A stretch of DNA of 8,174 nucleotides, taken from IMG/VR virus record IMGVR_UViG_2681813263_000010; one strand, 5' to 3'. The notes below the pieces were generated by a model, which was not told the origin of the DNA, did no database searches, and saw only the letters and a list, made by a program, of their open reading frames with translations. Shown here piece by piece: positions 2,845 through 8,145 of the stretch; positions within the stretch are counted from its first letter, which is position 1; each line of letters opens with the position of its first letter. Origin of the DNA: a virus. Taxonomy: Duplodnaviria > Heunggongvirae > Uroviricota > Caudoviricetes. The translations under genes and the position numbers were made by a program.

Positions 2845-3090
2845 TCAATGTACTGCCACAGCATTTCCTGCCGGGCCACCACGGTTCATCTGATTGAAAC
2901 CGGCGATTGCCACTGCGACAAAATCATCAGCGTCTCTCACCAGTCGTTCATGCGTCTCCACCAGTTCCCGAAAATAAGCTGAACTGTGGCTGCGCATTCG
3001 AGCCACCAGCGGAGGTGGCATTGCCCTTTCGATCGCAGGTAACAACGCCTGAATTTTTTCAACAGCGTCAGGGGTGTCTTTATCCAGCCA
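2845..3090 (-). CDS. cII-position protein (YdaT-like by synteny), C-terminal 82 codons visible; 5' end masked
   Basis: Stop TGA at 2847-2845; frame stays open to the N-run at 3091 (...WLDKDTPDAVEKIQALLPAIERAMPPPLVARMRSHSSAYFRELVETHERLVRDADDFVAVAIAGFNQMNRGGPAGNAVAVH). Lies 71 bp upstream of the initiator start. Family assignment is positional only, not sequence recognition. Confidence 0.5.
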   Translation of the reverse strand, partial: WLDKDTPDAVEKIQALLPAIERAMPPPLVARMRSHSSAYFRELVETHERLVRDADDFVAVAIAGFNQMNRGGPAGNAVAVH

Positions 3091-3718
3091 NNNNNNNNNN
3101 NNNNNNNNNNNNNNNNNNNNNNNNNNNNNNNNNNNNNNNNNNNNNNNNNNNNNNNNNNNNNNNNNNNNNNNNNNNNNNNNNNNNNNNNNNNNNNNNNNNN
3201 NNNNNNNNNNNNNNNNNNNNNNNNNNNNNNNNNNNNNNNNNNNNNNNNNNNNNNNNNNNNNNNNNNNNNNNNNNNNNNNNNNNNNNNNNNNNNNNNNNNN
3301 NNNNNNNNNNNNNNNNNNNNNNNNNNNNNNNNNNNNNNNNNNNNNNNNNNNNNNNNNNNNNNNNNNNNNNNNNNNNNNNNNNNNNNNNNNNNNNNNNNNN
3401 NNNNNNNNNNNNNNNNNNNNNNNNNNNNNNNNNNNNNNNNNNNNNNNNNNNNNNNNNNNNNNNNNAACGTAATATTTTTTCTCCTGTAAGNNNNNNNNNN
3501 NNNNNNNNNNNNNNNNNNNNNNNNNNNNNNNNNNNNNNNNNNNNNNNNNNNNNNNNNNNNNNNNNNNNNNNNNNNNNNNNNNNNNNNNNNNNNNNNNNNN
3601 NNNNNNNNNNNNNNNNNNNNNNNNNNNNNNNNNNNNNNNNNNNNNNNNNNNNNNNNNNNNNAAAAGTAAATAGTGATGCTATTTCAAAGTGATTAGCAAT
3701 CTTATTAGAATTGGATGT

Positions 3719-4219
3719 ATGAAAAGAAAATCATTGTCAGACACCGACCTCAACGCCGCCAGAAGACTGAAAGAAATCTGGATGGCAAAGAAATCTCAGT
3801 TGGGATTGACTCAGGAACGTGCGGCGGAAATTATGGGGTTTTCAACACAAGGGGCGGTAAGTCACTACCTAAATGGTCAAACCCCACTAAACCTTGAGGC
3901 TGTTCTAAAGTTTGCTGGCTTACTGAAAGTTCCCCCTGAGTCAATCAGGCCAGACATGGTAGATTTGCTGCAAATTGCAAGGATGTATTGTCGAGAACCA
4001 CAGCAAGATAACATAGTCGCATTACCAGCAGACACAGAACAAACAGAGGATGAACTACCGTTTGCCGTAGAGCCGATGGAACGAGATTTAATCCATACGT
4101 TCAGAGCTTTTCCGAAAGAAGATCAAGAACACATGCTTCAGGAGATGAAAGATAAAAAAGAATCAATGGATCGTACGGTTGCGCGGTGGTTAGCTGCACA
4201 AAAAGGCCGTCGCGCCTAA
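3719..4219 (+). CDS. HTH (XRE/Cro-CI type) transcriptional regulator, PaaR-like regulator of the three-component TA operon; candidate immunity repressor
   Basis: ATG 3719 (MKRKSLSDTDLNAARRLKEIW...), 166 aa, stop TAA 4217-4219. HTH segment LTQERAAEIMGFSTQGAVSHYLNG. C-terminal motif DLIHTFRAFPKEDQEHMLQEM resembles the DicA C-terminal region as recalled. No peptidase S24 module. Track start GTG 3689 has no SD. Confidence 0.8.
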   Translation: MKRKSLSDTDLNAARRLKEIWMAKKSQLGLTQERAAEIMGFSTQGAVSHYLNGQTPLNLEAVLKFAGLLKVPPESIRPDMVDLLQIARMYCREPQQDNIVALPADTEQTEDELPFAVEPMERDLIHTFRAFPKEDQEHMLQEMKDKKESMDRTVARWLAAQKGRRA

Positions 4220-4238: not shown

Positions 4239-4433
4239 ATGAGTACAGTCCTTTCCCCAATGGTTTCAGAATTTGAGACAGTTGAGCAAGAAAATAGTTA
4301 CAACGAATGGCTGCGGGCCAAAGTAGCAGCAAGCCTCGCGGATCCCCGCCCGGCGATTCCGCATGATGAGGTAATGGCGGAAATGGAACAAATTATTGCC
4401 CAAATTGCTGCTGCAACTCACAGAGGTGAATNN
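4239..4433 (+). CDS. paaA: PaaA-family antitoxin (64 aa; stop codon partly masked)
   Basis: SD GAGGA 4225-4229, ATG 4239. N-terminal 45 aa (..LSPMVSEFET.EQENSYNEWLRAKVA.SLADPRPAIPHDEV) matches the PaaA2 antitoxin of E. coli O157 paaR2-paaA2-parE2 as I recall it; the C-terminal 19 aa differ. In-frame codon 4431-4433 is tNN, consistent with a stop. Confidence 0.8.
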
Positions 4434-4469
4434 NNNNNNNNNNNNNNNNNNNNNNNNNNNNNNNNNNNN

Positions 4470-4587
4470 TTATGGCTACCATCTGCTCGTGATGATTTGC
4501 GCCAGATCGTAGCCTACATAGCTAAAGAAAATCCCGCGGCAGCACGCAGAATGAAAATTCGAATTGAAACATCCGTTTTGCCGCTCA
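4470..4587 (+). CDS. parE: ParE/RelE-superfamily toxin, N-terminal part visible (start in gap 4432-4469, 3' part in gap 4588-4730)
   Basis: LWLPSARDDLRQIVAYIAKENPAAARRMKIRIETSVLPL fits the ParE N-terminal helical hairpin pattern (..A..DL..I..YIA..NP.AA......L......LP). Immediately downstream of the PaaA-like antitoxin. Confidence 0.7.
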
Positions 4588-4730
4588 NNNNNNNNNNNNN
4601 NNNNNNNNNNNNNNNNNNNNNNNNNNNNNNNNNNNNNNNNNNNNNNNNNNNNNNNNNNNNNNNNNNNNNNNNNNNNNNNNNNNNNNNNNNNNNNNNNNNN
4701 NNNNNNNNNNNNNNNNNNNNNNNNNNNNNN

Positions 4731-4931
4731 GTATCCCTTTCCTGGTTGCTGACAGGAAAAGAAGATAGCAATAGAGAGACACTTGATGATGATGAGAAAG
4801 CCCTGCTTGATGTTTACAGAAATCTGCCACCTGTAGAACGCAGAAATATGCTTGCAGCTTTTCAAATGCGACTTCAAAAACTGACTGAATTTTATTCAGA
4901 ATACGTTGACCCAGCAACGCGTCAAAAATAA
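4731..4931 (+). CDS. DicA-like HTH repressor, C-terminal 66 codons (N-terminus masked, or a 3' remnant)
   Basis: VSLSWLLTGKEDSNRETLDDDEKALLDVYRNLPPVERRNMLAAFQMRLQKLTEFYSEYVDPATRQK, stop TAA 4929-4931. WLLTG is the typical end of a Cro/CI-type HTH domain; the following motif parallels DicA (..ELLELFNALPESEQDTQLAEM..) as recalled. Position upstream of ydfA-ydfB matches dicA in Qin. Confidence 0.5.
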   Translation, partial: VSLSWLLTGKEDSNRETLDDDEKALLDVYRNLPPVERRNMLAAFQMRLQKLTEFYSEYVDPATRQK

Positions 4932-4953
4932 TTCTTTATTTTACAAAACAATA

Positions 4954-4975
4954 CCGCCGAAAGGCGGTTTTTTTT
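4954..4975 (+). terminator. rho-independent terminator
   Basis: Stem CCGCC (4954-4958), loop GAAA, stem GGCGG (4963-4967), then T8 (4968-4975), 23 bp after the DicA-like stop. An A-rich tract upstream could allow weak activity on the other strand. Confidence 0.8.
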
Positions 4976-4980
4976 GCCTT

Positions 4981-5025
4981 TTATGAATTCATAATGTTGA
5001 CATATGTTCATTTAAAGAGAACAAT
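4981..5025 (+). promoter_or_regulatory. 14-bp perfect palindrome (operator candidate) abutting a sigma70-like promoter for the ydfA-dicB operon
   Basis: TTATGAATTCATAA (4981-4994) is perfectly self-complementary. TTGACA at 4997-5002; 17 bp downstream AACAAT (5020-5025) is a weak -10. About 75 bp upstream of the ydfA ATG. Confidence 0.4.
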
Positions 5026-5098
5026 GTATTCCATCAAAGCACAACGGTGCGACAGGTTTTAGTTCCGCCACCCGGCGTTAAGGGGAAATGAGGTCAGC

Positions 5099-5254
5099 AT
5101 GGATACTATCGATCTTGGCAACAACGAATCTCTGGTATGTGGCGTGTTCCCCAACCAGGATGGAACGTTCACCGCCATGACTTATACCAAAAGCAAAACG
5201 TTTAAAACCGAAGCTGGCGCGCGTCGCTGGCTGGAAAGAAACTCAGGTGAGTGA
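5099..5254 (+). CDS. ydfA: YdfA-like small prophage protein (51 aa)
   Basis: SD GAGGT 5090-5094, ATG 5099, stop TGA 5252-5254. MDTIDLGNNESLVCGVFPNQDGTFTAMTYTKSKTFKTEAGARRWLERNSGE, recognised as Qin-prophage YdfA-like. Not in the ORF track (short). Confidence 0.85.
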   Translation: MDTIDLGNNESLVCGVFPNQDGTFTAMTYTKSKTFKTEAGARRWLERNSGE

Positions 5255-5255
5255 T

Positions 5256-5384
5256 ATGGATTTCGACACAATCATGGAAAAGGCTTACGAAGAATACTTC
5301 GAAGGCCTTGCCGAAGGCGAAGAAGCTCTCAGCTTCAGCGAATTTAAACAGGCGCTTTCCAGTTCGGCAAAATCTAACGGCTGA
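5256..5384 (+). CDS. ydfB: YdfB-like small prophage protein (42 aa)
   Basis: ATG 5256, one nt after the ydfA stop; SD GGTGA 5246-5250; stop TGA 5382-5384. MDFDTIMEKAYEEYFEGLAEGEEALSFSEFKQALSSSAKSNG. Confidence 0.85.
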   Translation: MDFDTIMEKAYEEYFEGLAEGEEALSFSEFKQALSSSAKSNG

Positions 5385-5412
5385 TAAGCGAAACAGCACG
5401 CGAGGAATCAGT

Positions 5413-5523
5413 ATGCAGAAACGAGAACCCGTCATCATCGCGCCAGACTATACCGATGATGAACTTTATGAGTGGATTTTGGCGGCATCAGTTTCATTGC
5501 TGGCTGATGTCCGCCCTTTTTAA
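5413..5523 (+). CDS. YdfC-like small ORF (36 aa); 3' end overlaps the DicF-like sRNA
   Basis: SD GAGGAA 5402-5407, ATG 5413, stop TAA 5521-5523. MQKREPVIIAPDYTDDELYEWILAASVSLLADVRPF; the N-terminus resembles YdfC as recalled. The ORF-track 5251..5523 entry is the same frame with a spurious upstream start overlapping ydfB. Confidence 0.5.
   Translation: MQKREPVIIAPDYTDDELYEWILAASVSLLADVRPF
5465..5521 (+). ncRNA. dicF: DicF-like small RNA (processed from the dicB-operon transcript) with 3' terminator hairpin
   Basis: tttatgagtggattttGGCGGcATCAGtttcattgctggCTGATgtCCGCCcttttt resembles K-12 DicF as recalled (UUUCUGGUGACGUUUGGCGGUAUCAGUUUUACUCCGUGACUGCUCUGCCGCCC). Stem GGCGG.ATCAG / CTGAT..CCGCC (5481-5515), U-run 5517-5521. 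Position after ydfC matches Qin. Confidence 0.6.
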
Positions 5524-5703
5524 AGTGAATTTTGTGATGCGGTGAATGCGGCTCAGCGCACGCGGAACAGTTAAAACAGTAAGGAAAATCCCTTATTCCG
5601 GCGTTAATTATTAACTGGTTAACGTCACCTGGAGGCACCAGGCACCGCATCAACAAAGTTCACTTCGGTGATGAAAGGAAAGAGAAAATGTTGAATGTAG
5701 CTA

Positions 5704-5732
5704 TTGAAAACCAGAACGGGTGGAATTATAGT
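5704..5732 (+). promoter_or_regulatory. candidate sigma70 promoter: TTGAAA-N17-TATAGT
   Basis: TTGAAA 5704-5709, 17-bp spacer, TATAGT 5727-5732. Lies inside the stop-free frame upstream of the Rha ATG, arguing that this stretch is leader rather than coding. Confidence 0.4.
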
Positions 5733-5794
5733 GCATCTGCACCTCATAAAACGGGGGCCGGGCGTGGAAACCCGAACGTTACTCGAGCGCATAG

Positions 5795-5815
5795 CCGCGC
5801 TGAAGCGGTTTTTTT
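5795..5815 (+). terminator. weak terminator-like hairpin plus U-run (possible attenuator or sRNA 3' end)
   Basis: CCGC (5795-5798), loop GCTGAA, GCGG (5805-5808), followed by T7 (5809-5815). Only a 4-bp stem; an alternative GCGC/GCGC pairing (5787-5790 with 5797-5800) is mutually exclusive with it. Confidence 0.35.
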
Positions 5816-5984
5816 ATGCGTAATGCACAGCTCCATTCAAATTATGGTGGGATGTGCAGGGCAGTCGCAAGACTGGCCGGGTTCTCGAGTGACCGGTATT
5901 TCCACCCCTGTACGTCTCACCACCCTTATGGTCGTGGAAAACCTCGGTGGTGAGTTAATTAACTTATCACTCGAGGATGCCATC

Positions 5985-6542
5985 ATGGCTACTATCCCTG
6001 CCCTTTCTCACCCTGACGTAACCATCGAAAATGGTCGCGCTGTCACTACGTCTATTGCGATCGCAGAGTTCTTTGGCAAGCGTCACGACAATGTGTTACG
6101 TGCCATCGCAAATACTGAATGCTCACCTGAATTTAACGCCCTCAATTTTGAGGACGTCACCTACACTGACGCCAAAGGCGAAAAACGCCCGATGTACCAA
6201 ATCACCAAAAACGGCTTCGTTTTCCTGGTGATGGGATTCACTGGCAAAAAAGCCGCTGCATTCAAAGAAGCCTACATTGCTGAGTTCGACCGCATGGAGG
6301 CCGAACTGCGCCAGAATAACACCCCACCCACTGACAAAATAATTCCAGGCGATGGCCGCACCCTGGTTGTTCACTTCGACGAACGCGGCAACATCAGATT
6401 CACCGAAACCGTTCCTGATGGCGCACGGGTCTGTACCATGGAGACTTTCCGGTTTTATCTGGAAGAACAGGGATGGACTCTTGTTAACCGGGGCGCAATT
6501 AAAAATATGACTGTAGAGCAATTACTCAAAATTCATTGTTGA
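5985..6542 (+). CDS. Rha-family phage regulatory protein (185 aa)
   Basis: SD GAGGA 5972-5976, ATG 5985, stop TGA 6540-6542. N-terminal domain ..ENGRAVTTSIAIAEFFGKRHDNVLRAI...DAKGEKRPMYQITKNGFVFLVMGFTGKKAAAFKEAYIAEFDRME matches the Rha (pRha) signature. Track ORF 5688..6542 is the same frame with an upstream extension judged non-coding. Confidence 0.8.
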   Translation: MATIPALSHPDVTIENGRAVTTSIAIAEFFGKRHDNVLRAIANTECSPEFNALNFEDVTYTDAKGEKRPMYQITKNGFVFLVMGFTGKKAAAFKEAYIAEFDRMEAELRQNNTPPTDKIIPGDGRTLVVHFDERGNIRFTETVPDGARVCTMETFRFYLEEQGWTLVNRGAIKNMTVEQLLKIHC

Positions 6543-6552
6543 GGACGCGATA

Positions 6553-6741
6553 ATGGAAACGTTATTACCAAACGTTAATACGACTGAAGGTTGTTTTGAA
6601 ATTGGTGTCACTATCAGTAACACGGTATTTACTGAAGATGCCATTAACAAGAGAAAACACGAACGGGAGCTATTAAATAAAATATGCATTGTTTCAATGC
6701 TGGCTCGTTTGCGTCTGATGCAAAAAGGATGCTGGCGATGA
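6553..6741 (+). CDS. dicB: DicB cell-division inhibitor (62 aa)
   Basis: SD GAGGA 6541-6545, ATG 6553, stop TGA 6739-6741. METLLPNVNTTEGCFEIGVTISNTVFTEDAINKRKHERELLNKICIVSMLARLRLMQKGCWR, near-identical in pattern to K-12 DicB as recalled. Confidence 0.9.
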   Translation: METLLPNVNTTEGCFEIGVTISNTVFTEDAINKRKHERELLNKICIVSMLARLRLMQKGCWR

Positions 6742-6929
6742 ATACAGCATTTGCACTCGTTCTGACCGTTATTCTTAATACGGGCGAACCAGCTGAACTG
6801 GTTACCGGAGTATACAACTCCATGAAAGAATGCGTGGCTGCTGCAGCTGAACAGAAAATTCCCGGTAACTGTTATCCGGTTGATAAAATCATTCACCAGG
6901 ATAATAAAGAAGTCCCGGCAGGTCTTTAA
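6738..6929 (+). CDS. ydfD: YdfD-like small protein (63 aa; family reported as lysis-associated)
   Basis: ATG 6738-6740 overlaps the dicB stop (ATGA); SD AAGGA 6724-6728; stop TAA 6927-6929. MNTAFALVLTVILNTGEPAELVTGVYNSMKECVAAAAEQKIPGNCYPVDKIIHQDNKEVPAGL. Hydrophobic N-terminal segment. Confidence 0.85.
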   Translation: MNTAFALVLTVILNTGEPAELVTGVYNSMKECVAAAAEQKIPGNCYPVDKIIHQDNKEVPAGL

Positions 6930-7228
6930 AGCANNNNNNNNNNNNNNNNNNNNNNNNNNNNNNNNNNNNNNNNNNNNNNNNNNNNNNNNNNNNNNNNNNN
7001 NNNNNNNNNNNNNNNNNNNNNNNNNNNNNNNNNNNNNNNNNNNNNNNNNNNNNNNNNNNNNNNNNNNNNNNNNNNNNNNNNNNNNNNNNNNNNNNNNNNN
7101 NNNNNNNNNNNNNNNNNNNNNNNNNNNNNNNNNNNNNNNNNNNNNNNNNNNNNNNNNNNNNNNNNNNNNNNNNNNNNNNNNNNNNNNNNNNNNNNNNNNN
7201 NNNNNNNNNNNNNNNNNNNNNNNNNNNN

Positions 7229-8145
7229 CGGCTGCTCAGGACTGCGCTTATAAATTTATTGTCTGCGAGGATAAACCTGGTATACCCCGCCCTGCCCTCG
7301 ATTCCTGGGATGCTGAATATATGCAGGAAAACCGCTGGGATGAGGAGTCTGCTTCCTTTGTCCCGGTTGAGACTGAATCCGAACCGATGAACGTCACTTT
7401 TGACAAGCTGGCCCCTGAAGTACAGAACGCTGTCATGGTTAAGTTCGACACATGTGAAAACATCACCGTTGATATGGTGATTAGCGCGCAGGAACTGTTG
7501 CAGGAAGACATGGCAACATTCGACGGACATATCGTTGAAGCGTTGATGAAAATGCCAGAAGTTAACGCCATGTGTCCGGAGATTAAACTGCATGCCATCG
7601 GGTGGATTAAGCATAAATGTAAGCCTGGTGCAAAATGGCCAGAAATTCAGGCAGAGATGCGCATCTGGAAAAAATGTCGCGAAGGTGAACGCAAGGAAAC
7701 CGGAAAATACACGTCTGTTGTTGATCTCGCCCGTGCCAGAGCCAATCAACAGCACACTGAAAATTCAACAGGAAAAATCAGCCCGGCCATTGCTGCCATT
7801 CATCGCGAATACAAGCAGACATGGAAAACACTGGATGACGAACTGGCCTACGCTCTCTGGCCTGGTGATGTGGATGCCGGAAACATTGACGGCAGCATCC
7901 ATCGCTGGGCAAAAAATGAAGTTATCGACAACGACCGCGAAGACTGGAAGCGTATCTCGGCATCAATGCGCAAACAGCCTGATGCCCTTCGCTACGACCG
8001 CCAGACTATTTTTGGCCTTGTCCGTGAACGTCCGATCGACATTCACAAAGACCCTGTGGCACTGAACAAATACATTACTGAATACCTGACTACAAAGGGC
8101 GTGTTTGAAGATGAAGGAACAAATCAGAGCGCAACTGATACTTGA
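7229..8145 (+). CDS. hypothetical prophage protein, C-terminal ~305 codons visible (5' end masked); YdfE-position gene
   Basis: Long stop-free frame from the gap edge to TGA 8143-8145 (..AAQDCAYKFIVCEDKPGIPRP...EYLTTKGVFEDEGTNQSATDT). Antisense ORFs over the same span are N-run artefacts or shorter. No family recognised. Confidence 0.6.

Follow-up and report, generated by a model that had tools for sequence, protein, structure and literature searches.

A probable RNA-gated, immunity-type cassette with a Rha gene upstream of dicB in a Qin-like prophage operon

Between the DicF-like RNA and dicB of a Qin-like prophage operon lies a segment of 873 nt that is probably a self-contained immunity-type cassette, RNA-gated and placed upstream of dicB, which comprises a sigma-70 promoter, an IsrK-like RNA, a C4/CI-type RNA and a Rha gene. 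Positions refer to the window, that is the whole stretch of 8,174 nucleotides of viral DNA (IMG/VR record IMGVR_UViG_2681813263_000010) that was analyzed. Both leader RNAs match Rfam families above the respective gathering scores, and the recognition sequences a' and b' of the C4 element co-vary with their sites a1/b1 and a2/b2 through at least 14 specificity types. Cassettes of this kind have been described in P1, P4 and Gifsy-1. Among E. coli prophages the present one is a frequent alternative allele, and it probably subjects the division inhibitor DicB to control by an RNA switch. A preliminary description, made from the sequence alone, had proposed that a Rha-family module with a long structured leader was inserted between dicF and dicB. 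The extra segment and the Rha gene have stood up to the analysis; the leader is more than merely structured, and the unit is not private to this lineage.

The segment between dicF and dicB and its history

The operon around the segment is composed as follows:

4997-5025, + strand: putative dicBp-like sigma-70 promoter of the ydfA-dicB operon (TTGACA-17-AACAAT; consensus scan)
5099-5254, + strand: ydfA (Pfam DUF1391)
5257-5384, + strand: ydfB
5414-5523, + strand: truncated ydfC (36 codons; the codons after around 21 and the ydfC-dicF spacer are deleted, as seen in the K-12 alignment)
5467-5516, + strand: variant of a DicF-like sRNA (Rfam RF00039, 43.3 bits, E 1.3e-7)
5517-5662, + strand: dicF-dicB spacer common to K-12 (146 nt; alignments and direct reading)
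5663-6535, + strand: module absent from K-12 Qin (alignment and direct reading)
6553-6741, + strand: dicB (62 aa; Pfam DicB, 128.7 bits)
6738-6929, + strand: ydfD (Pfam DUF1482, 75.5 bits; its ATG overlaps the dicB stop in ATGA)

The position of the dicBp-like promoter matches the region upstream of ydfA in K-12 and is preceded by an intrinsic terminator (4953-4968); further upstream, 4731-4931 presumably represents the C-terminal sequence of a DicA-like protein with a masked N-terminus, and the candidate DicA-like repressors of the window are placed at 3689-4219 and around 4530-4931. The Pfam matches of ydfA, dicB and ydfD and the alignment with K-12 identify a dicB operon of the Qin type, in which ydfC is truncated and the DicF-like RNA scores slightly under the RF00039 gathering score of 48. 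This RNA has retained its terminator hairpin (terminator-like site 5484-5511 plus a T-run), and a deletion of around 0.5 kb, which fuses ydfC codon ~21 to dicF, has put ydfC sequence in place of its 5' ~12 nt. The window thus shares with K-12 Qin the promoter region, ydfA, ydfB, the 5' part of ydfC, the DicF hairpin, the 146-nt spacer, the dicB leader from TTGTTGAGG onwards, dicB and ydfD, with gene order and flanks kept. It differs in the 873 additional nucleotides between spacer and dicB leader and in the deletion that joins ydfC to dicF, with loss of the DicF 5' end.

In K-12 Qin (NC_000913.3) dicF (1649382-1649434) and the start of dicB (1649609) are 174 nt apart, in agreement with the preliminary description, which has dicB close behind dicF, whereas in the window 1036 nt separate the end of the DicF-like RNA (5516) from dicB (6553); the extra DNA is real. 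The comparison with Qin that had been proposed at the outset places the end points of the module at 5663 and 6535, bounded by a 9-nt direct repeat: CAAAGTTCA at 5654-5662 on the left and CAAAATTCA at 6527-6535 on the right. The right repeat constitutes the last 9 nt of the module and repeats the end of the spacer. The spacer, which gives a partial STnc100 match under the gathering score (33.5 bits), has the left repeat as its end and is closed by a long helix between 5523-5544 and 5643-5665; the right repeat duplicates the 3' arm of this conserved helix. At the module ends the 9-nt direct repeat is present and terminal inverted repeats are absent, and there is no transposase (rha is the sole ORF with a family match in the module); an insertion of the transposon type was rejected. 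As had been described, dicB follows closely on the Rha stop with a Shine-Dalgarno sequence of its own (GAGGA, 6541-6545), which overlaps the rha stop (TGA, 6540-6542); 10 nt separate this stop from the ATG at 6553.

The contiguous K-12-type dicF-spacer-dicB junction was found in 3777 of 5426 complete E. coli genomes (~70%), the module in at most 392 (~7%, roughly 1 in 14) and the rha-dicB joint in at least 145. E. coli VL7S7 and RMDEC465 are examples of strains with the allele of the window. Most dicB operons thus lack Rha, the reverse of what the preliminary description had named as evidence against an insertion. As the gene next to rha on the downstream side, dicB was counted 47 times, kilR 21 times and kil once, and DicF and the spacer lie upstream of isrK-C4-rha in all three contexts alike; the same dicF-spacer-isrK-C4-rha order is found upstream of a 93-aa gene and in Citrobacter. 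An identical rha-dicB joint occurs with two dicB alleles that are around 60% identical in protein, and L062 carries a diverged version of it. Module-less junctions are likewise found with both dicB alleles and are about ten times commoner than the module. The presence of the joint on two dicB alleles and of the unit before kilR and kil shows that the arrangement is not private to this lineage. With respect to the sampling, the scan of genome contigs with Rha yielded only 18 loci, few of them informative, and the viral scan with a DicB alignment returned K-12-type alleles only and was repeated with the diverged allele.

The cassette was probably acquired by a K-12-like dicB operon in an old recombination event with an operon of the kil/kilR type as its source, and it now circulates as an alternative allele. 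Two sequence features make such an old acquisition the more parsimonious history: the repeated copy of the spacer helix arm and the derived Rha tail. The dicB-linked Rha ends in LLKIHC-stop, of which KIHC-stop is encoded by K-12-like spacer and dicB-leader sequence, whereas Rha elsewhere, including Citrobacter, ends in LL[SRGC][IL]K-stop. Against this polarity, as opposed to a deletion in K-12, stand the joint on diverged dicB alleles and its diverged version in L062. It is conceivable, though we hold it to be the less probable course, that the cassette is ancestral in dicB operons and that K-12 Qin and the E. coli majority lost it by deletion between the 9-nt repeats. The product of such a deletion would be exactly the K-12 sequence, and the conservation of the unit before kilR, kil and the 93-aa gene and in Citrobacter would agree with it, as would the identical joint on alleles of ~60% identity and the diverged joint in L062, which indicates that the adjacency of rha and dicB is old. 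This loss would, however, require that a chance copy of the 3' helix arm of the spacer pre-existed exactly at the end of rha, and it sits poorly with a C-terminus that is derived in the dicB context as compared to all others and with the roughly tenfold excess of module-less junctions on both dicB alleles.

The leader RNAs and the Rha protein

Within the module and up to the end of rha the following elements were recognized:

5704-5732, + strand: sigma-70-like module promoter (TTGAAA-17-TATAGT; consensus scan)
5739-5815, + strand: IsrK-like sRNA of 77 nt (Rfam RF01394, 59.6 bits, E 3.9e-11; gathering score 50)
5764-5770, + strand: decoy site a1, in the IsrK part
5779-5787, + strand: decoy site b1, in the IsrK part
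5793-5815, + strand: IsrK intrinsic terminator with a U7 run (terminator scan)
5840-5927, + strand: C4/CI-type antisense RNA element (Rfam RF01695, 76.7 bits, E 3.9e-14; gathering score 45)
5844, + strand: conserved AUG in the 5' arm of C4
5881-5892, + strand: C4 loop b'
5899-5905, + strand: single-stranded a' of C4
5934-5940, + strand: downstream target site a2
5967-5978, + strand: downstream target site b2, which covers the rha Shine-Dalgarno (GAGGA, 5973-5977)
5985-6542, + strand: rha (185 aa; Pfam Phage_pRha PF09669, residues 21-105)

The 'long structured leader' of the preliminary description is indeed structured far beyond chance (its minimum-free-energy fold, in which a1/b1 pair with a'/b' in cis, has a z-score of -5.3), but it is more than merely structured: it consists of an IsrK-like and a C4-type RNA with a promoter and terminator of their own, and the unit can therefore be assigned to the known type of RNA-gated antirepressor cassettes. 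The 5' end of the isrK model falls on the start predicted for the module promoter, near 5739. The promoter is kept in the E. coli variants and in Citrobacter, and its Gifsy-1 version (TTGACA-17-TATATT) was demonstrated by experiment (PMC4825925). The isrK and C4 pair precedes rha at 11 other loci; the RF03163 model reaches only 18.3 bits here, under its gathering score. According to the Gifsy-1 alignment the AUG at 5844 corresponds to the start of orf45, and the equivalent of that ORF begins here; in 44 of 45 distinct leaders this AUG is in frame with rha, with no intervening stop. A 45-aa ORF at 5816-5953 was rejected as the orf45 counterpart, being unconserved and having a stop at codon 3 in L062 and L010. 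A hairpin at 5942-5976 that hides the rha Shine-Dalgarno in the minimum-free-energy fold was likewise discarded, as it shows no covariation and its 63.6% pairing equals that of shuffles.

The Rha domain scores 112 bits (E 2e-32) against a curated cut-off of 29.9 and the substitutions in rha are distributed over the codon positions as 105/76/220, a coding-type pattern, so that the gene is a real member of the Rha family, as claimed. The best PHROG match is phrog_995, labelled 'transcriptional regulator'. Anti-repressor Ant phrogs are further matches of the N-domain, and phrog_2379 (AnrP family) gives a weak link at residues 101-172 (E 3.8e-7). Orthology to AnrP was rejected, given a BLASTP E of 0.018 over short stretches and the fact that AnrP has ORF6N where the protein here has a Phage_pRha N-domain. 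A sequence search of the PDB with Rha gave no relative. By analogy, Rha is most likely an antirepressor-like trigger directed against a non-cleavable DicA-type repressor. The label of phrog_995 and the description of the Rha domain as a winged-helix DNA-binding domain (PMC8951638) would also suit a DNA-binding transcription regulator, for instance of dicB/ydfD or of late genes, in which case the cassette would simply add a regulator. We regard this as rather unlikely, since the characterized C4/CI/IsrK-type leaders all control proteins of the antirepressor type (P1 Ant, P4 epsilon, Gifsy-1 AnrP), and since the N-domain and the C-terminal domain match the Ant and AnrP phrogs, respectively.

Covariation was assessed on a set of 47 distinct leaders representing 14 specificity types. 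The C4 element shows the characteristic fold of a long outer stem enclosing two hairpins, and in 14 sequences the helices reach 99.6%, 98.6% and 100% pairing and show compensatory changes. For a1-a', 100% of the cells are paired and both sides have changed in 6 of 7 pairs; for b1-b' these values are 88.5% and 7 of 9. Together the two pairings give a covariation score of 0.723 as compared to 0.173 in shuffles (0 of 500 reach the observed value), and at most 0.144 when the partners are slid. In a fixed alignment register only 55.5% of b'-b2 is paired, since from type to type the site moves by 1-3 nt; support for b'-b2 therefore rests on an alignment-free comparison, in which the mean complementarity is 10.6 nt for cognate and 6.6 nt for non-cognate combinations. 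In 14 of 14 types the cognate run measures 9-12 nt and stops 6-11 nt short of the ATG. In the window itself promoter, terminator and the six a/b sites are intact and mutually matched.

In current annotation the two RNA genes disappear into a 284-aa product named as a 'Rha family' or 'ash family' protein, which hides the regulators. It is improbable that this Ash-Rha fusion (5688-6542, PGAP) is the real gene and that the RNA matches are incidental to a coding Ash domain. In nearly all variants the frame stays open for 97 codons or more before the rha ATG, it has 7 stops where the other two frames have 256 and 313, Pfam Phage_ASH (PF10554) matches with 54.2 bits, and both PGAP and the literature (PMC8951638) treat Rha/Ash as a two-domain protein. 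Nevertheless, substitutions in the leader lack codon periodicity (84/87/91, as compared to 105/76/220 in rha) and show strong compensatory covariation of the RNA type, while the supposed ORF contains an intrinsic terminator with a U7 run and has the promoter downstream of its ATG. Moreover, the Ash profile maps in P4 on the old 'cI ORF', which overlaps the CI/C4 RNA gene, and in the window its match coincides with isrK and C4. The P4 immunity factor is an RNA. The equation of Ash with the P4 epsilon antirepressor, implied in one paper, was rejected in a test on P4, where epsilon is PF25738 and Ash falls on the ORF over the CI RNA. Finally, that the cassette is an inert relic without present function is very improbable: it sits in a defective-looking Qin/Rac-type prophage next to a deletion-damaged ydfC and dicF, but rha is intact with a signature of purifying selection, the signals and sites of the window still match one another, and the unit is conserved in hundreds of genomes.

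The proposed switch and its implications

The functional steps at this locus we infer by homology with Gifsy-1, P1 and P4. Most transcripts would stop at the IsrK terminator, and those that read through would carry the C4 element. The latter may pair with a1/b1, either as the silent form or in titration by free IsrK acting as a decoy, or alternatively with a2/b2, which would block translation of rha. Rha would be made when ribosomes start at AUG 5844, which is fused in frame to rha here. The genes dicB and ydfD are presumably co-transcribed with rha, as rha and dicB are not separated by a terminator and the Shine-Dalgarno sequence of dicB shares bases with the rha stop. With rha untranslated, dicB and ydfD would be silenced by the lost translational coupling and by Rho polarity; with the switch open, they would be expressed together with rha. 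The Rho-polarity step in P1 c4 was reportedly described by Biere, Citron and Schuster in about 1992. The earlier suggestion that dicB relies on read-through from the Rha unit is plausible from the sequence arrangement, but dicBp may also drive dicB independently of the cassette, by transcription that passes two intrinsic terminators.

Among the prophage genes that halt host division, DicB and KilR are standard cases, and DicB also protects against phage infection. The K-12 model has dicB and kilR controlled only by DicA/RacR-type repressors. Given that an RNA-gated, antirepressor-like cassette with a promoter of its own directly precedes a division inhibitor in around 1 in 14 E. coli genomes, what holds for K-12 may fail to apply to these strains, among them O157:H7 and other pathogenic isolates. 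Literature searches retrieved no paper on dicB, Rha and dicF combined or on 'C4 antisense RNA' with Rha, and the hits for isrK with dicF, among them PMC7547250, yielded no description of this arrangement; for the kilR/kil-linked loci the searches returned no characterization beyond annotation.

More speculatively, the order dicF-spacer-isrK-C4-rha could represent a conserved three-sRNA block that holds the FtsZ/MinC-directed inhibitors (DicB, KilR, Kil) and Rha under a heteroimmune antisense switch, a generalization that we put forward tentatively. If true, a cognate IsrK-type decoy, of the prophage itself or of a co-resident one, would switch on Rha and filamentation in one prophage only, and the a'/b' types, at least 14 in number, would have diversified to stop co-resident prophages from cross-triggering each other. 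The 'Ash domain' (PF10554) would then be the translated image of IsrK/C4 RNA genes, with a frame kept free of stops solely by the need for ribosomes to pass the leader. The many co-varying specificity types supply a natural, ready-made set of orthogonal RNA switches and a testable case of crosstalk between prophages.

Comparison with known systems

The unit recurs in Rac-type and other lambdoid prophages (for example O157:H7 MB9-1 and Citrobacter braakii ATCC 51113), which have the same succession of DicF-like element, spacer, isrK, C4 and rha, with Rha 63-91% identical and the unit directly upstream of a division inhibitor. They differ in that kilR or kil and not dicB lies downstream and in that Rha ends in LL-x-[IL]-K-stop.

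The isrK-orf45-anrP locus of Gifsy-1 in Salmonella (Hershko-Shalev et al. 2016, PMC4825925) shares with the window the promoter, a 77-nt IsrK with terminator and a C4-type element (STnc1160) around 25 nt downstream, the conserved AUG in the C4 5' arm, and equal spacing of the parts. Complementarity among a1/b1, a'/b' and a2/b2 is likewise common to both, and b2 in each case lies on the Shine-Dalgarno sequence of the gene that follows. The minimum-free-energy fold of the window mirrors 'structure A' of Gifsy-1, the experimentally shown cis pairing between the middle of IsrK and the C4 region (PMC4825925). The two loci differ in the protein, as AnrP has ORF6N and the protein here, which is not an orthologue, a Rha N-domain, and in the coupling, as the orf45 UGA overlaps the anrP AUG whereas the equivalent ORF here runs in frame into rha. 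Furthermore, isrJ follows the effector in Gifsy-1 and dicB does so here (an Rfam search gave no isrJ match in the window), and the Gifsy-1 locus lies after Q (downstream of antQ), whereas the present one is part of a DicA-controlled early operon, after ydfA, ydfB, ydfC and dicF. The model of the Gifsy-1 authors stresses the action of IsrK on the orf45 structure and less a masking of the anrP ribosome-binding site by C4 (PMC4825925), so that the actual logic of the switch may not be exactly the one set out here.

In P1, C4 controls the division inhibitor gene icd and ant (PMC8201110). The P1/P7 immI region (c4-icd-ant1/ant2) resembles the window in its C4 fold, in two recognition elements that match upstream and downstream sites, in downstream sites that cover a ribosome-binding site, in the existence of heteroimmune specificity variants and in the coupling of an antirepressor with a cell-division inhibitor (Icd). 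In P1, however, b2 lies on the ribosome-binding site of icd, with ant coupled, and the inhibitor is upstream of the antirepressor, whereas here b2 lies on the rha Shine-Dalgarno and dicB, kilR or kil is downstream of the antirepressor-like gene. In addition, the upstream sites here are located in a separately terminated IsrK-type sRNA.

The seqA-CI-seqC region of P4 likewise gives an isrK-like match followed by a C4 match, has an ORF across the RNA gene that matches Phage_ASH, and has an antirepressor (epsilon) downstream in the controlled operon. P4 CI works by terminating transcription of the replication operon prematurely. In P4 the effector is epsilon (PF25738) and not Rha, and P4 is a satellite phage, whereas the cassette described here resides in a lambdoid prophage.

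The additional segment of the dicB operon

In the window, an immunity region of the Qin/Rac type is followed by the features of a dicB operon on the plus strand. Six N runs mask parts of the window; the interval 4931-6933 is free of them.

4997-5025, +, promoter resembling dicBp (the ydfA-dicB operon promoter)
5099-5254, +, ydfA
5257-5384, +, ydfB
5414-5523, +, ydfC, truncated to 36 codons
5467-5516, +, DicF-like element (43.3 bits, slightly below the gathering score of 48)
5517-5662, +, dicF-dicB spacer of 146 nt (from the K-12 alignment)
5985-6542, +, rha, 185 aa (Phage_pRha, 112 bits)
6553-6741, +, dicB (Pfam, 128.7 bits)
6738-6929, +, ydfD

The preliminary description had placed around 1 kb with a Rha-family gene between dicF and dicB, unlike in K-12, and this is borne out: 1036 nt lie between the DicF-like element and dicB, versus 174 nt in K-12 MG1655 (dicF end 1649434, dicB start 1649609). 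The comparison with Qin, suggested there as a means to fix the insertion end points, indeed does so. In the alignment, K-12 similarity breaks off after ...ACAAAGTTCA (5654-5662) and restarts at TTGTTGAGGACGCGATAATG (from 6536), immediately preceded by CAAAATTCA (6527-6535); the extra DNA (the module) comprises 873 nt (5663-6535), with a 9-nt direct repeat (one mismatch) at its borders. The rha Shine-Dalgarno GAGGA is positioned 7 nt upstream of the rha ATG. As had also been proposed, dicB starts shortly after the rha stop with a Shine-Dalgarno of its own; the distance is 10 nt, and the GAGGA site (6541-6545) overlaps the stop codon (6540-6542).

Codon ~21 of ydfC (GAGTGGAT) is fused to dicF TTTGGCGG by a deletion of ~0.5 kb (K-12 reference L002:3824-4435; L-numbers denote compared loci). 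Since the deletion replaces the first ~12 nt of DicF, the Rfam score falls under the gathering score. The 5' region of DicF pairs with some of its targets, and the target specificity of the window's DicF may be altered or lost. The spacer is strongly conserved across K-12, kilR-linked loci and Citrobacter (window 5517-5665). Its ends pair as a helix of ~20 bp (5523-5544 with 5643-5665) and it includes a partial STnc100 match (33.5 bits, under the gathering score); as a structured element, it may serve in processing the operon mRNA. Besides its partner in the spacer, the helix's 5' arm, TGAATTTTG, also complements the right-hand repeat (6527-6535).

Two tandem DicA-like HTH genes are apparent (3689-4219, HTH_3; and 4731-4931, readable only at its C-terminal part), with an apparent antitoxin/ParE-RelE-type toxin pair (4239-4587) between them. 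N runs obscure part of this region; in the related strain VL7S7, HigB/HigA occupy the equivalent position. A long ORF 3' of ydfD, within 6880-8145 (421 aa as listed, broken by a 295-nt N run), gave no Pfam match; its VL7S7 counterpart is annotated as a 3'-5' exonuclease (recE-like position).

The isrK-C4 leader of rha

The 'long structured leader' of the preliminary description is indeed structured, the minimum-free-energy fold of 5739-5995 reaching -108.3 kcal/mol (z -5.3), but that label falls short, as the leader also contains Rfam matches to isrK (5739-5815, 59.6 bits) and the C4 antisense RNA (5840-5927, 76.7 bits), both above the gathering score; a weak c4-a1b1 match overlaps isrK. A sigma-70-like promoter (TTGAAA-17-TATAGT, 5704-5732) would start transcription exactly where the isrK model begins, and an intrinsic terminator (5793-5815) closes isrK. 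The isrK-C4 pair was found upstream of rha in 11 of 11 related loci scanned. The C4 recognition segments (a', b'), their decoy sites (a1, b1) and their target sites before rha (a2, b2) are as follows.

5764-5770, a1, complementary to a', inside isrK
5779-5787, b1, complementary to b', inside isrK
5881-5892, b', the C4 loop
5899-5905, a', the C4 single-stranded segment
5934-5940, a2, complementary to a'
5967-5978, b2, complementary to b', covering the rha Shine-Dalgarno

Among 47 distinct leaders gathered from IMG/VR and genome loci, 14 combinations of b' and a' occur, and all 14 are accompanied by a cognate b2 (a run of 9-12 nt whose end lies 6-11 nt upstream of the rha ATG) and a cognate a2 (7-8 nt). 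The mean b'-b2 run is 10.6 nt for cognate versus 6.6 nt for non-cognate partners. In an alignment of 14 sequences, Gifsy-1 included, pairing in the three C4 helices is 98.6-100% and is accompanied by compensatory changes; a1-a' is 100% paired (both-side changes in 6/7 pairs) and b1-b' 88.5% (7/9 pairs). The joint covariation score of the two decoy pairings is 0.723, versus 0.173 in shuffles (0/500 reach 0.723), and with slid partners it is at most 0.144. Counted in a fixed register, b'-b2 is only 55.5% paired, because the position of b2 varies by 1-3 nt across types. In the predicted fold a1/b1 pair with a'/b' in cis, which corresponds to the translationally silent 'structure A' experimentally shown in Gifsy-1 (PMC4825925). 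A local hairpin predicted over the rha Shine-Dalgarno was discarded, comparative support being absent.

Co-resident cassettes differ in a' and/or b' in four of the five genomes compared (SFBU1023, L008/L011; ECMA0423, L009/L012; IMG 2869924733, L031/L049; IMG 2671180603, L026/L043), the fifth having identical duplicates; anecdotally, this fits a heteroimmunity reading in which cross-reaction is avoided. Some prophages carry tandem isrK-C4 units of differing a'/b' types (L004:2345-2533 and 3001-3189; L026:~2443 and ~2857), annotated in L004 as an 'ash family protein' and the Rha N-terminus, respectively. Upstream of some other rha genes (82-85% identical), an unrelated sequence stands where isrK-C4 would be (L048:2867-2956; same leader in L035). 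It matches Rfam sRNA-Xcc1 (RF02221, 67.4 bits), likewise ends in a terminator right before a structured element, and seems to be a different RNA leader serving the same effector.

The Rha protein annotated by PGAP begins at ATG 5688 and has 284 aa; its 99-aa N-terminal extension matches Pfam Phage_ASH (PF10554). PF10554 and the PGAP 'Rha family'/'ash family' proteins (280-odd aa) span the isrK and C4 RNA genes (window 5688-5984). ATG 5688 is upstream of the module promoter, and the terminator falls inside the 284-aa ORF. Substitutions by codon position are 84/87/91 in the leader (no periodicity) versus 105/76/220 in rha. In P4 (L266:8171-8584, minus strand) the Ash profile falls on the obsolete 'cI ORF' overlapping the CI RNA gene, and epsilon belongs to a family other than Ash. 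We read the 'Ash domain' as what the RNA genes look like when translated. In nearly all of the 47 leaders the rha-frame stays open (7 stops in total, the remaining frames having 256 and 313); from AUG 5844 onward this is best explained by ribosomes having to read through the leader.

Distribution and origin of the module

In 5426 complete E. coli genomes, the K-12-type contiguous spacer-dicB junction was found in 3777, the module at a coverage of at least 80% in 392 and part of it only in 856; the rha-dicB joint of the window's allele was present in at least 145 and a rha-kilR joint in at least 118. The gene after rha was surveyed in 87 loci whose Rha identity is 63-100%, apart from a single more distant hit. 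It is dicB in 47, kilR in 21, a kil homologue in Citrobacter braakii and a 93-aa protein of unknown function (phrog_6751) in around 10, the remaining loci being unclassified or at a contig edge. Close Rha homologues directly precede the distinct division inhibitors dicB, kilR and Kil (phrog_294), and in some loci the 93-aa gene instead; next-gene examples are L003:3920-4141, L010:3568-3783, L006:3731-3943 and L031:3572-3850. Upstream of rha, a DicF-like sequence and the spacer occur in the dicB, kilR, kil and 93-aa contexts alike. Stx2a phages have the leader and the Rha N-domain. The K-12-like dicB allele and a ~60% identical allele each occur with and without the module, with an identical joint in both; the module allele has spread by recombination.

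The 3' arm of the conserved spacer-closing helix (5523-5544/5643-5665) supplies the left repeat, so the right repeat is a second copy of a spacer piece at the rha-dicB joint. Rha ends in LL[SRGC][IL]K-stop where kilR, kil or the 93-aa gene follows and in Citrobacter, versus LLKIHC-stop before dicB, and the last codons of the latter tail have the same sequence as the spacer end and dicB leader of K-12. The module was probably acquired by the dicB operon: a single recombination would account for both the second helix-arm copy and the Rha tail, with a kil/kilR-type operon as donor, a K-12-like dicB operon as recipient, a left crossover within homologous dicF/spacer sequence and an illegitimate right join 9 nt before the dicB leader. 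A loss from K-12 by deletion between the repeats would yield the same sequences, but only if a copy of the helix arm happened to stand where rha ends; we consider it less likely. Whichever the direction, the event is old, because the joint in L062 has diverged.

Expected effect on dicB and relation to known C4 systems

No terminator-like site was found between rha and dicB, so read-through from the module promoter would carry dicB and ydfD; within rha there is only a weak 9-of-12 promoter-like match (6316-6343). Transcripts from dicBp would have to cross the DicF and IsrK terminators. With rha untranslated, the loss of coupling and Rho polarity, a step known from the P1 c4 literature, would keep dicB silent, and with the switch open Rha and DicB would be produced together. 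The cassette is of interest for its link to division inhibitors, its many specificity types and the mis-annotated RNA genes. Our literature search found no paper on an isrK-C4-rha cassette in dicB or kilR operons.

In Gifsy-1, isrK and C4 (STnc1160) are followed by AnrP, with the same spacing and a/b design as in the window. IsrK read-through transcripts are silent there, and free IsrK switches on orf45 translation, to which that of AnrP, an antirepressor-like protein that induces the prophage, is coupled (PMC4825925). The orf45 start is an AUG within the C4 5' arm, equivalent to AUG 5844 of the window. In Gifsy-1 the 45-codon ORF closes with a UGA overlapping the anrP AUG, whereas the ORF from the C4 AUG continues in frame into rha with no stop in the window and in 44 of 45 distinct leaders. 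In PHROG, the Rha N-domain matches families of the Ant type, and residues 101-172 the AnrP family (E 3.8e-7). The window's Rha was rejected as an AnrP orthologue. In P4, an isrK-like element (seqA) and C4 (CI) have the antirepressor epsilon downstream. In P1, the division inhibitor gene icd and ant are under C4 control (PMC8201110), and the inclusion of Icd in that operon parallels the position of rha beside dicB, kilR and Kil. All parts of the cassette belong to known families, and they are arranged as in P1, P4 and Gifsy-1.
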